A DNA stretch of 64,000 nucleotides, from assembly GCF_002854065.1 (NCBI RefSeq), contig NZ_CP024147.1; one strand, written 5' to 3'. This stretch comes from Escherichia coli. GTDB taxonomy: Bacteria > Pseudomonadota > Gammaproteobacteria > Enterobacterales > Enterobacteriaceae. The notes under the pieces are model-generated. The model was not told the DNA's origin. It ran no database searches and saw only the letters and a list, made by a program, of their open reading frames with translations. Below are positions 17,905 to 57,323 of the stretch, in pieces. Each line of letters begins with the position of its first letter. The stretch's first letter is position 1. A program made the translations under genes and the position numbers.

Positions 17905-20091
<2,187 letters not shown>

Positions 20092-20504
20092 TCACCGCAT
20101 AACACACATTTCGAGGATTTTTTACTTTCGGTATTTACGGTGGCCATCATCCACGGGCATGCCGTAGTACAGGCGCTACAGCCAATACAACGTTTATGAT
20201 CGACGGTAATACAGCCTTCTTTCTGCTGCCAGGTAATCGCACCAATCGGGCAGACGTTCATGCATTGCGGCTCTTTGCATTGACGGCAGGTGTCCGCGGT
20301 ATAGTTGAGATCGCCATACAGGCCGCCGCCAGAGCCAACCCCGTTGTCGCCAAAGAAATAATTGCGATGGATTTTGATACGGGAGAAGAATGTCCCTACT
20401 GAGCCATCGTTGAAGTTGGTACAAGAGATTTCACAGCGGTGGCAACCCGTGCATCGCGCTCGCTGGGTCACCAGCTCCCCTTTGGGTGTATTTATCAACC
20501 CTAC

Positions 20505-20512: not shown

Positions 20513-20567
20513 GGTGATGCTGCCAACTTACTGATTTAGTGTATGATGGTGTTTTTGAGGTGCTCCA

Positions 20568-20843
20568 GTGGCTTCTGTTTCTATCAGCTGTCCCTCCTGT
20601 TCAGCTACTGACGGGGTGGTGCGTAACGGCAAAAGCACTGCCGGACATCAGCGCTATCTCTGCTCTCACTGCCGTAAAACATGGCAACTGCAGTTCACTT
20701 ACACCGCTTCTCAACCCGGTACGCACCAGAAAATCATTGATATGGCCATGAATGGCGTTGGATGCCGGGCAACCGCCCGCATTATGGGCGTTGGCCTCAA
20801 CACGATTTTCCGCCATTTAAAAAACTCAGGCCGCAGTCGGTAA
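20568..20843 (+). CDS. insA: IS1 InsA (transposition repressor / N-terminal part of InsAB' transposase)
   Basis: 91-aa [46 protein letters not shown]... with zinc-finger-like Cys pairs. Confidence 0.95.
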
Positions 20844-21265
20844 CCTCGCGCATACAGCCGGGCAGTGACGTCATCGTCTGCGCGGAAATGGACGAACAGT
20901 GGGGATACGTCGGGGCTAAATCGCGCCAGCGCTGGCTGTTTTACGCGTATGACAGGCTCCGGAAGACGGTTGTTGCGCACGTATTCGGTGAACGCACTAT
21001 GGCGACGCTGGGGCGTCTTATGAGCCTGCTGTCACCCTTTGACGTGGTGATATGGATGACGGATGGCTGGCCGCTGTATGAATCCCGCCTGAAGGGAAAG
21101 CTGCACGTAATCAGCAAGCGATATACGCAGCGAATTGAGCGGCATAACCTGAATCTGAGGCAGCACCTGGCACGGCTGGGACGGAAGTCGCTGTCGTTCT
21201 CAAAATCGGTGGAGCTGCATGACAAAGTCATCGGGCATTATCTGAACATAAAACACTATCAATAA
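20762..21265 (+). CDS. insB: IS1 InsB (catalytic part of InsAB' transposase, made by -1 frameshift)
   Basis: 167-aa [19 protein letters not shown]...HYLNIKHYQ in the -1 frame relative to insA. Confidence 0.95.
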
Positions 21266-21280
21266 GTTGGAGTCATTACC

Positions 21281-21288
21281 TGTGCCGC
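21281..21288. repeat. IS1 target-site duplication, right copy (TGTGCCGC)
   Basis: Matches 20505-20512 exactly. Confidence 0.85.
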
Positions 21289-21631
21289 TATCAATATCTT
21301 CCTGTTTGCAACCCAAAAGTGACAGTAACGCAGGGGCAATTGTTAGACCAGCAAGGCCTTTTCCTGATATACGCAAGAATTCTAATCGCGTTAAGCCAAT
21401 ATCTAATAGTGGACGATCAACCGGGTTCATTTATTTCGCATCCTCTTCGCAAACACAGTGCTGACAATTCAGCAGCCTGATATTAAGCATTCAACTAATA
21501 CGCTGCTGACTCTGTCCTCAACACCAGATATTTTCCCTAACCCGATAGTGTATGAGAAAAGATTTAACGCCGATAAACTAATCCTTTATGGTTAGGAGAA
21601 AAAATAATGTGGTTATTCTGGGCTCTTAACA

Positions 21632-21645
21632 TTGATCATTATCAA
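21632..21645. promoter_or_regulatory. Consensus FNR site upstream of ydhY
   Basis: TTGATCATTATCAA is a perfect match to TTGAT-N4-ATCAA, in the AT-rich region about 200 bp upstream of the ydhY start. Confidence 0.6.
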
Positions 21646-21885
21646 TTAAAATTACAAAGCAAGAAATTATAAGTGAACTGATATTTATTATCATTTGAAA
21701 TGAATTTAACTTAAGCGACAATTATTTGTGACGGTCATTGCAGAAAATAAAAATAATATTATCGTTATAAATTAAAACACATATCGAAATTCGTATAATT
21801 TCAGCAGTTGTTATTTAGAATGATTAACTGGACCGCAACTGAAGCAAGAATATCAGGATGAAGCTTATCGCCTCATCCTGAATGG

Positions 21886-22095
21886 TCATTTTACCAGTGC
21901 GTTAATGACGGTTTCCATCGCCTGCTTTTCCAGCTCACTGCGCTGAATGCGTTTATTGGCTAATGCTGTACGTAATACGCCTGCGATAACAATATGCTTT
22001 GGTTCCTGCCCCAGATCGCGCATTTCCAGCACAACTTTACCGACAACTCTGCACATTTCTCGGTACAGTTCATCCTCTTTTGTCCGATTTCCCAT
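21886..22095 (-). CDS. fumD: Small fumarase D
   Basis: 69-aa ORF MGNRTKEDELYREMCRVVGKVVLEMRDLGQEPKHIVIAGVLRTALANKR...; position between ydhY and pykF. Confidence 0.8.
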   Translation of the reverse strand: MGNRTKEDELYREMCRVVGKVVLEMRDLGQEPKHIVIAGVLRTALANKRIQRSELEKQAMETVINALVK

Positions 22096-22409
22096 TCTTT
22101 ATACCTATTTATCATGCCAACTATCAGCATATATCAATCTAACCAATTAAACAAAAATCAAACAAAATCAGACAAATAACGCGATAAATTATTTTAACTG
22201 TAGCAATTGAGCGATGATGTATTTATACACCGGATGAACTTTCGCTTATCCTCACAGTGACAACCCCGGCACCAGACGTTGCGCAAACAGCGAAGTTTTT
22301 GCGTAACCTTTTCCCTGGAACGTTAAATCTTTGATAACAATTTATTGTCTAACAAGTTGTATATTTTTTGAAACGCTGTTTTTGTTTTCCTTTTGGATTA
22401 ATTTCAGCG

Positions 22410-22446
22410 TATAATGCGCGCCAATTGACTCTTGAATGGTTTCAGC
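22410..22446 (+). promoter_or_regulatory. Putative pykF promoter -10 (TATAAT) with downstream Cra-like operator
   Basis: TATAAT at 22410-22415; TGAATGGTTTCAGC at 22433-22446 resembles the Cra half-sites TGAAAC/GTTTCA. Confidence 0.4.
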
Positions 22447-22651
22447 ACTTTGGACTGTAGAACTCAACGACTCAAAAACAGGCACTCACGTTGGGCTGAG
22501 ACACAAGCACACATTCCTCTGCACGCTTTTTCGATGTCACCTATCCTTAGAGCGAGGCACCACCACTTTCGTAATACCGGATTCGCTTTCCGGCAGTGCG
22601 CCCAGAAAGCAAGTTTCTCCCATCCTTCTCAACTTAAAGACTAAGACTGTC

Positions 22652-24064
22652 ATGAAAAAGACCAAAATTGTTTGCACCATCGGACCGAAAACCGAATCTG
22701 AAGAGATGTTAGCTAAAATGCTGGACGCTGGCATGAACGTTATGCGTCTGAACTTCTCTCATGGTGACTATGCAGAACACGGTCAGCGCATTCAGAATCT
22801 GCGCAACGTGATGAGCAAAACTGGTAAAACCGCCGCTATCCTGCTTGATACCAAAGGTCCGGAAATCCGCACCATGAAACTGGAAGGCGGTAACGACGTT
22901 TCTCTGAAAGCTGGTCAGACCTTTACTTTCACCACTGATAAATCTGTTATCGGCAACAGCGAAATGGTTGCGGTAACGTATGAAGGTTTCACTACTGACC
23001 TGTCTGTTGGCAACACCGTACTGGTTGACGATGGTCTGATCGGTATGGAAGTTACTGCCATTGAAGGTAACAAAGTTATCTGTAAAGTGCTGAACAACGG
23101 CGACCTGGGTGAAAACAAAGGTGTGAACCTGCCTGGCGTTTCCATTGCCCTGCCAGCACTGGCTGAAAAAGACAAACAGGACCTGATCTTTGGTTGCGAA
23201 CAAGGCGTAGACTTTGTTGCTGCTTCCTTTATTCGTAAGCGTTCTGACGTTATCGAAATCCGTGAGCACCTGAAAGCGCACGGCGGCGAAAACATCCACA
23301 TCATCTCCAAAATCGAAAACCAGGAAGGCCTCAACAACTTCGACGAAATCCTCGAAGCCTCTGACGGCATCATGGTTGCGCGTGGCGACCTGGGTGTAGA
23401 AATCCCGGTAGAAGAAGTTATCTTCGCCCAGAAGATGATGATCGAAAAATGTATCCGTGCACGTAAAGTCGTTATCACTGCGACCCAGATGCTGGATTCC
23501 ATGATCAAAAACCCACGCCCGACTCGCGCAGAAGCCGGTGACGTTGCAAACGCCATCCTCGACGGTACTGACGCAGTGATGCTGTCTGGTGAATCCGCAA
23601 AAGGTAAATACCCGCTGGAAGCGGTTTCTATCATGGCGACCATCTGCGAACGTACCGACCGCGTGATGAACAGCCGTCTCGAGTTCAACAATGACAACCG
23701 TAAACTACGCATTACCGAAGCGGTATGCCGTGGTGCCGTTGAAACTGCTGAAAAACTGGATGCTCCGCTGATCGTGGTTGCTACCCAGGGCGGTAAATCT
23801 GCTCGCGCAGTACGTAAATACTTCCCGGATGCCACCATCCTGGCACTGACCACTAACGAAAAAACGGCTCATCAGTTGGTACTGAGCAAAGGCGTTGTGC
23901 CGCAGCTGGTTAAAGAGATCACTTCTACTGATGATTTCTACCGTCTGGGTAAAGAACTGGCTCTGCAGAGCGGTCTGGCACACAAAGGTGACGTTGTAGT
24001 TATGGTTTCTGGTGCACTGGTACCGAGCGGCACTACTAACACCGCATCTGTTCACGTCCTGTAA
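22652..24064 (+). CDS. pykF: Pyruvate kinase I
   Basis: 470 aa from [44 protein letters not shown]...; the ORF-track start at 22436 is an in-frame upstream extension with no stop. Confidence 0.97.
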
Positions 24065-30970: not shown

Positions 30971-31339
30971 CTATACCCCAAAGCTTTCGCCACAGCCACA
31001 TTCATTCTGGGCTTTAGGGTTGTGAAATTTGAATATCTGATTAAGTCCTTCACGAACGAAATCGACTTCCGTGCCATCAATAAACGGCATCGCTTGCAGC
31101 GGGACAAACAGCTTCGCGCCGTCGTGTTCAAACAGCAGATCGTCTTTGTCCGGCTCGCTAACACTGTCGAGCACATAGCCAAAGCCCGCGCAGCCCGTTT
31201 GCTTCACACCTAAGCGCACGCCGACCATACCTGGCTGCTTTGCCACCAGCTCGCGGATGTGGACAGCGGCTGCGGGTGTCAGCGTTAAGCCTTGCCAGGC
31301 GAAATCCTGTGGATTAAAGGTTCCTGAATGCATGTCCAT
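30971..31339 (-). CDS. sufA: Fe-S cluster A-type carrier SufA
   Basis: 122-aa ORF with C-terminal CGCGESF motif; first gene of the sufABCDSE operon. Confidence 0.93.
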
Positions 31340-31383: not shown

Positions 31384-31402
31384 GTGATAATGATTATCAG
31401 TT
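31384..31402. promoter_or_regulatory. Fur box in the suf promoter
   Basis: GTGATAATGATTATCAGTT matches the Fur consensus GATAATGATAATCATTATC; about 45-60 bp upstream of the sufA start. Confidence 0.65.
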
Positions 31403-31516: not shown

Positions 31517-31536
31517 TAGATAATGATTATTATCTA
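31517..31536. promoter_or_regulatory. Second Fur-box-like inverted repeat in the distal suf control region
   Basis: TAGATAATGATTATTATCTA: 7-bp arms TAGATAA / TTATCTA around GATAAT-like hexamers, about 180-200 bp upstream of sufA. Confidence 0.35.
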
Positions 31537-51262: not shown

Positions 51263-51317
51263 GGTGATGCTGCCAACTTACTGATTTAGTGTATGATGGT
51301 GTTTTTGAGGTGCTCCA

Positions 51318-57304: not shown

Positions 57305-57323
57305 TGATAATAAGAATCATTGT
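57305..57323. promoter_or_regulatory. Fur-box-like site upstream of ydiE
   Basis: TGATAATAAGAATCATTGT resembles the Fur consensus; 24 bp upstream of the ydiE start. Confidence 0.5.

Follow-up and report, generated by a model that had tools for sequence, protein, structure and literature searches.

The 455-bp spacer between fumD and ydhY in this Escherichia coli DNA is, with a probability of about 90%, the control region of the ydhYVWXUT operon, with inputs from FNR, NarL/NarP, Fur and H-NS, and is preceded by the terminator of fumD. It should be noted that the ydhY promoter is already characterised in the literature, where both its FNR site at -42.5 and its control by NarL/NarP, Fur and H-NS are described; the significance of the assignment is small beyond the correct annotation of this control region. 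What is picked out here is a conserved block in the middle of the leader and a possible interplay of Fur versus H-NS.

The window, i.e., the whole 64-kb stretch of DNA that was analysed, contains fumD at 21886-22095 on the minus strand and the ydhY start codon at 21430 on the same strand. The intergenic region is therefore 21431-21885, 455 bp, compared to 454 bp in K-12. With a GC content of 32.7%, versus 49.7% for the window as a whole, and as little as 23% in 21600-21799, it is AT-rich, as the sequence-only reading had described for this 455-bp spacer. The spacer belongs to the E. coli core genome: of 5426 complete E. coli genomes, 5422 contain it, with 100% identity to E. coli CUWW06 and 99.6-99.8% identity to O55:H7 and O157:H7 strains. 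Using a terminator scan, we found an intrinsic terminator of fumD at 21853-21881 (minus strand), in which a 12-bp stem and a 5-nt loop are followed by TATTCTT. It begins 5 bp past the fumD stop codon (21886), and its sequence is not kept in the Citrobacter alignment. An anaerobic sigma70 peak at 1753092 (U00096.2; Myers 2013 Table S1, PMC3688515) maps within fumD.

The operon itself is interrupted in this genome. A 768-bp IS1 lies in ydhY at 20513-21280 (plus strand), as identified by the insA and insB open reading frames, the intact allele of CUWW06 and the IS1 end sequence, and the target duplication (C)TGTGCCGC, 8-9 bp, is found on both flanks. The insertion point is about 150 bp into ydhY, downstream of the promoter, and leaves two ydhY fragments, 21200-21430 and 20028-20498. 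Since IS1 splits ydhY, the operon that the intact promoter drives is a disrupted one in this genome, and the insertion is probably polar on ydhVWXUT. The exact ydhY-IS1 junction had no single 100% match in 5426 complete E. coli genomes; in 7 of the 5426, we detected a site to which 80% or more of the junction query aligns, under an annotation of ferredoxin-like protein plus IS1. A second IS1 left end, identical to that at 20513, is located 30 kb away at 51263-51285, and the genome may be rich in IS1, whether as a Shigella-like strain or as one related to the O157/O55 lineage. Elsewhere in the window, the open reading frame 22436-24064 is pykF fused in frame with upstream sequence (22436-22640); RefSeq has a small protein, YnhH, directly upstream of pykF in K-12 and CUWW06. 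The sequence-only reading contained neither the IS1 in ydhY, nor the Fur box, nor the H-NS binding of the AT-rich tract that are discussed here.

The FNR box and the ydhY transcription start

The sequence TTGATCATTATCAA at 21632-21645 is the sole perfect match to TTGAT-N4-ATCAA in the window, with 0.16 matches expected. However, 16 of 100 shuffled windows contained at least one perfect match, and by count the box is just mildly unusual; it is significant because it is conserved across orthologous loci. On the sense strand the box reads TTGATAATGATCAA, and the assignment is supported by the motif scan, the orthologues and the tables of Myers 2013, with the box centre at -42.5. The distance to the ATG of ydhY is 202 bp from the near edge, 215 bp from the far edge and 208.5 bp from the centre, which agrees with the earlier estimate of an FNR site about 200 bp before ydhY. 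The N4 spacer is AATG here, versus AACG in K-12; the half-sites are unchanged, and N4 is not contacted.

Published K-12 data place FNR on this site. Table 1 of Myers 2013 (PMC3688515), citing Partridge 2008, lists ydhYVWXUT as directly FNR-activated (category 1) with a site at -42.5, a spacing that is given in that table solely for ydhY and fnrS. The predicted K-12 FNR site is TTGATCGTTATCAA at 1752702 (U00096.2; Tables S5/S6 of the same study), and the ydhY site is covered by two FNR ChIP peaks, 1752688 and 1752706 (U00096.2); thus, the FNR ChIP data that had been suggested as a check on the palindrome are in favor of it. In the same study (PMC3688515), ydhY is classed as "Activated" in the delta-fnr comparison (Table S8), the aerobic/anaerobic expression ratio of ydhY is 0.25 (Table S12), and the sigma70 ChIP-seq peak 1752642 goes up under anaerobic conditions, from 46.9 to 177.4. 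Another sigma70 ChIP-seq peak from anaerobic growth is reported at 1752666 (U00096.2; Table S1).

The FNR site is found at 1754678-1754691 in NC_000913.3 (U00096.3), an offset to U00096.2 of 1976 bp. Adding this offset to the sigma70 peak 1752666 gives 1754642, which corresponds to window position 21596 on the minus strand and coincides exactly with the FNR box centre (21638.5) minus 42.5. We therefore infer from the published K-12 data that the ydhY transcript starts at 21596 (minus strand). A mapped start incompatible with the FNR site had been named as the observation that would overturn the earlier reading; the published start is compatible with the site, given the box centre at -42.5. Our literature search for anaerobic dRNA-seq data did not bring up any published table of start sites that includes ydhY. 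The +1 base is C, which is uncommon as an initiating base. A -10 hexamer, CATTAT, then occupies 21604-21609 (minus strand; -13 to -8), its position following from the inferred start, and is invariant in an alignment of 21 Escherichia and Citrobacter sequences. No -35 hexamer was found at the ydhY promoter, which fails a two-hexamer sigma70 scan; this is expected for a class II activator-dependent promoter. Judged by its sequence and the published start, the ydhY promoter is class II and FNR-activated, as the box match, the spacing of about -41.5 (+/-1) and the -10 hexamer in the absence of a -35 hexamer are all found. In vitro, the ydhY promoter is also reported to prefer sigmaS.

Fur, NarL/NarP and H-NS inputs

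Scanning for the Fur 7-1-7 motif with no more than two mismatches, we detected 4 matches in 64 kb, versus 0.26 expected. One of these is the Fur box of the spacer at 21679-21693 (7-1-7 motif TGATATTTATTATCA, 13 of 14 positions; centre at about -90), the sequence of which is AATGATAATAAATATCA, scored against the 7-1-7 motif TGATAATNATTATCA. The only perfect match in the window, 31385-31399, is in the sufA promoter and served as a positive control. A second, two-mismatch copy is located at 31518-31532, also just upstream of sufA (30971-31339, minus strand); we take these motifs upstream of sufA to be the known Fur-controlled suf promoter. Another two-mismatch match is at 57305-57319. In the alignment of orthologous loci, the Fur box of the spacer is the best-conserved block upstream of the FNR box, Budviciaceae included.

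Expression data for strain CFT073 allow the direction of this control to be assessed. Under anaerobic conditions, the reported ydhY expression ratios are 0.072 for fur-/wt, 1.0 for ryhB-/wt and 0.109 for fur-ryhB-/wt, and a Fur ChIP-seq peak is reported near ydhY at 1910890, i.e., 274 bp upstream of the ydhY ATG and 17 bp off the centre of the Fur box. The mutant ratios and the ChIP peak together suggest that Fur acts on ydhY positively and independently of RyhB. The literature on ydhY and RyhB consists solely of papers reporting RyhB independence, and a Fur iModulon study includes ydhY and ydhV, without a direction of regulation.

Immediately downstream of the start, a motif scan and conservation point to a candidate NarL/NarP-type 7-2-7 inverted repeat, TAACCAT-AA-AGGATTA, at 21579-21594 (+3 to +18), with one mismatch per heptamer to TACYYMT. 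The pattern as such occurs in the window no more often than expected (3 matches at two mismatches versus 2.99); because this count is not above chance, it is the position and the conservation of the repeat that support it. The repeat is contained in a conserved block, CCTAACC(A/C)TAAAGGATTA, at +1 to +18. Its Citrobacter version is TAACCCT-AA-AGGATTA, and the corresponding sequences are TACCCCC-TT-AGAGGTA in Limnobaculum and TACCTCT-TT-GTTGGTA in Leminorella. Five loci of Citrobacter spp. have an insertion of about 20 bp just 3' of the 7-2-7 site; the insertion contains the repeat TACCCGTGTTTAGGGTA or TTCCTGTCTTGAGGGTA and resembles a second NarL-type operator with 7-3-7 spacing. The sequence-only reading had raised NarL/NarP sites as additional promoter elements, along with a scan for NarL heptamers, and the conserved repeat at +3 to +18 is in line with this suggestion. 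Both NarL and NarP are named as regulators of ydhY in the title of Partridge 2008 (Microbiology 154:608), and ydhY is not among the entries of the MotifAdjuster NarL site tables. The actual NarL/NarP footprints may be other than, or extra to, the candidate 7-2-7 site.

Upstream of the FNR box, an AT-rich tract at 21646-21840 (GC about 23-31%) is bound by H-NS according to the literature. It lies within one of the 78 "promoter islands" of Panyukov & Ozoline 2013 (PLoS One 8:e62601), island 1752593_318 (U00096.2; ydhY/ydhZ), which converts to 21523-21840 of the window and is H-NS-bound in all ChIP data sets of that study. In a SlyA study, ydhYV-T is an H-NS target that is up 2.5-fold upon SlyA over-production. 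The FNR ChIP signal at ydhY increases significantly, from 0.295 to 1.82, when hns and stpA are both deleted (Myers 2013, PMC3688515, Table S7). It should be noted that the H-NS data sets partly disagree: the ChIP-chip data of Myers 2013 (PMC3688515, Table S6) have neither an H-NS nor an IHF peak at the FNR site of ydhY, in contrast to three other data sets. The spacer contains 6 promoter-like sites, compared to 2.6 +/- 1.5 in shuffled sequences, a modest excess. Thus, the spacer is a "promoter island", being AT-rich, with an excess of promoter-like sites and with H-NS binding known from the literature.

Two moderately conserved blocks, TTTCG.T.T.T...TTTATAACGA and GTCACAAATAATTGT, lie at 21762-21789 and 21718-21732 (about -125 to -190), and neither matched the CRP, ArcA, IHF, FNR or Fur consensus. 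Sites for CRP, ArcA and IHF in the spacer were rejected, as the consensus matches are weak and unconserved; for example, the left half of the CRP-like site at 21727-21742 is poorly conserved.

Orthologous loci, the leader and alternative readings

A scan for YdhY relatives, taking one genome per species, gave 30 loci, which belong to Escherichia species, some 20 Citrobacter, Leminorella and Limnobaculum. At a distance of 162-248 bp from the ATG, a perfect FNR box was found in 26 of 26 Escherichia and Citrobacter loci that include the upstream DNA; in the three Budviciaceae, a one-mismatch box, TTGATAACGATCAC, is located 145-150 bp before the ATG. The conserved blocks are the Fur box, the FNR box, CATTAT, the 7-2-7 repeat, a mid-leader block and the Shine-Dalgarno region, while the remaining spacer is 40-60% conserved. 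The fumD-ydhY spacer of Citrobacter is 410-520 bp long, with a GC content of 33-40%. The three Budviciaceae loci (Leminorella, Limnobaculum) are without an upstream fumD, as is a second ydhY copy that we observed on a second contig of Citrobacter sp. NCU1. All of them keep the Fur-FNR-NarL module, which therefore belongs to the ydhY operon. This pattern is consistent with horizontal movement of the operon together with its control region. The new observation is that the operon is accompanied by the Fur-FNR-NarL module and a long leader in both Enterobacteriaceae and Budviciaceae, which favors the view that they form one integrated oxygen/nitrate/iron switch for an oxidoreductase.

Counted from the inferred start, the ydhY 5' untranslated leader is about 166 nt long (21431-21596, minus strand), and the orthologous box-to-ATG distances, 145-248 bp, imply leaders of 96-199 nt. 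A long 5' UTR was one of the two consequences that had been drawn earlier from the position of the palindrome, and a leader of this length agrees with it. Two parts of the leader are conserved. The mid-leader block ATCGGGTTAGGGAAAA at 21526-21548 (minus strand) forms a conservation peak of 0.82; in the alignment it reads ATCNGGTTAGGG, and it can pair either with the 5' end of the leader (CCUAACC, 7 bp) or with codons 2-4 of ydhY (8 bp). The region proximal to the Shine-Dalgarno sequence, 21431-21465 (minus strand), is nearly invariant, with a mean identity of 0.84-0.99 across genera; it contains GAGGA at 21441-21445, inside about 40 nearly invariant bases that end at the ATG. A terminator-like hairpin in the leader (21474-21459) was considered weak, having a 6-bp stem and a poor T run, and is unconserved in Citrobacter. 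We found no literature linking ydhY with CsrA.

Small open reading frames were rejected as well. The plus-strand mini-ORF 21608-21673 (21 codons, AGGAG-N8-ATG) reads ATG-TGA in K-12, and the minus-strand 19-codon upstream ORF that ends at the ydhY ATG (MLNIRLLNCQHCVCEEDAK) lacks its ATG in Citrobacter. Among the 33 distinct RefSeq records listed, of the 5422 matching genomes, no annotated gene lies under the spacer match. The earlier statement that no ORF with a ribosome-binding site is evident is thus essentially correct, the lone exception being the plus-strand mini-ORF.

The conserved mid-leader block raises the question of whether the long leader acts in cis as a regulatory RNA, in which the block AUCNGGUUAGGG pairs alternatively and adds a post-transcriptional layer to the promoter. 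A long leader is kept by all orthologues, both the mid-leader block and the 40 nt preceding the ATG are conserved, pairing in the two alternative helices of the block reaches 95% and 90%, a single compensatory change being present, and a 5-bp helix that closes the variable domain of the leader occurs with GC, GU and AU pair types. However, the pair counts of the helices are uninformative either way, because the paired columns are almost all invariant, and 15 of 21 sequences cannot form the central pair of the helix that involves the coding region. The single-sequence fold of the leader (z = -1.7) is no better than that of shuffled sequences, RNAalifold yields a weak consensus of -8.2 kcal/mol, to which covariation contributes -0.79, and an Rfam scan of 21000-22500 matched no family at E <= 1. 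In addition, much of the leader is missing in C. koseri and Budviciaceae, and the block might just as well act as a site in the DNA, since its antisense sequence, CCCTAACCCG, resembles a NarL heptamer. We consider a regulatory RNA in the leader unlikely.

Two other readings concern the palindrome itself, and both are less probable still. The FNR site could serve another promoter, either by repressing the minus-strand ATGATA-17-TATAAT (21694-21666), being located directly downstream of the start of that element, or by driving a plus-strand transcript antisense to fumD, for which TATAAG at 21668-21673 would sit at -13 to -8 of the start. The FNR box is symmetric, the minus-strand element, just upstream of the box, is a sigma70-like match at 10 of 12 positions, and the spacer, as a published "promoter island", offers many potential starts. 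Conversely, the upstream TTATAA element is confined to Escherichia, without conservation in Citrobacter, whereas the downstream CATTAT is invariant, the anaerobic sigma70 peak is at the downstream start, 21596, and the published expression data show that FNR activates ydhY-T; the plus-strand mini-ORF is not conserved. The chance that the site belongs to another promoter is therefore very small. The other reading, that the AT-rich spacer has no function, being mere filler or left over from a horizontal transfer, and that its FNR palindrome arose by chance, could appeal to the shuffled windows, 16% of which contain at least one perfect FNR match per 64 kb, and to the literature, where the ydhY operon is classed as horizontally acquired and H-NS-bound. 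It is contradicted by the published ChIP and expression data, and by the retention of the box, its spacing to the -10 hexamer and the flanking sites across two enterobacterial families, against 40-60% conservation in the rest of the spacer; on account of this conservation and of the ChIP data from the literature we regard it as refuted, with practically no probability left.

Proposed control of ydhY and comparison with known systems

As a control region of ydhYVWXUT, the spacer would work as follows. FNR, according to the published data, binds the palindrome at -42.5 and activates the class II promoter anaerobically, with a start near 21596. In the presence of nitrate or nitrite, phosphorylated NarL/NarP at +3 to +18 may block initiation, early elongation or promoter escape; the position and conservation of the repeat, together with the published names of the regulators, point to such a block. 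The Fur site at about -90 is likely to provide positive, RyhB-independent control by iron, as suggested by sequence, conservation, ChIP and RNA-seq. H-NS, as the published K-12 ChIP data suggest, would coat the AT-rich DNA around these sites and lower the occupancy by FNR, and we infer that Fur might counteract H-NS at ydhY, as at ftnA. A three-input gate, in which Fur displaces H-NS so that FNR can bind, while the mid-leader block switches its pairing to tune translation, is possible, although we advance it only tentatively. If it is true, iron sufficiency would license the anaerobic induction of this Fe-S-rich oxidoreductase.

The closest known system is the ydhYVWXUT promoter of E. coli K-12 (Partridge 2008; Myers 2013, PLoS Genet 9:e1003565), which is the same locus, with about 97% identity of the spacer. 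Compared to K-12, no change is seen in the FNR half-sites, -10 hexamer, 7-2-7 repeat, Fur box or leader; the differences are one N4 base, a few substitutions, a 1-bp indel and the ydhY gene, which is split by IS1 here.

The ydhY promoter also resembles those of dmsA and frdA, which are class II FNR promoters repressed by NarL/NarP. Shared features are an FNR box near -41.5/-42.5, the absence of a -35 hexamer, and NarL-type heptamers (candidate sites at ydhY) around or downstream of the start, for nitrate repression of an operon for an alternative anaerobic oxidoreductase. In contrast to dmsA and frdA, the box of ydhY is at -42.5 rather than at the usual -41.5, there is a single 7-2-7 pair at +3 to +18, and the leader is unusually long.

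With respect to iron, the likeness is to ftnA. Nandal et al. are said to have found in 2010 that Fe2+-Fur activates ftnA by reversing H-NS silencing, and ydhY shares with ftnA a positive, RyhB-independent dependence on Fur and a Fur site located upstream in H-NS-bound AT-rich DNA. However, ydhY has one Fur box rather than several, FNR is needed as well, and anti-silencing at ydhY is putative. Finally, the ydhY spacer is similar to the E. coli "promoter islands" in being AT-rich, dense in promoter-like sites and H-NS-bound; most promoter islands are reported to be transcriptionally silent, whereas the ydhY island contains a genuine regulated promoter.
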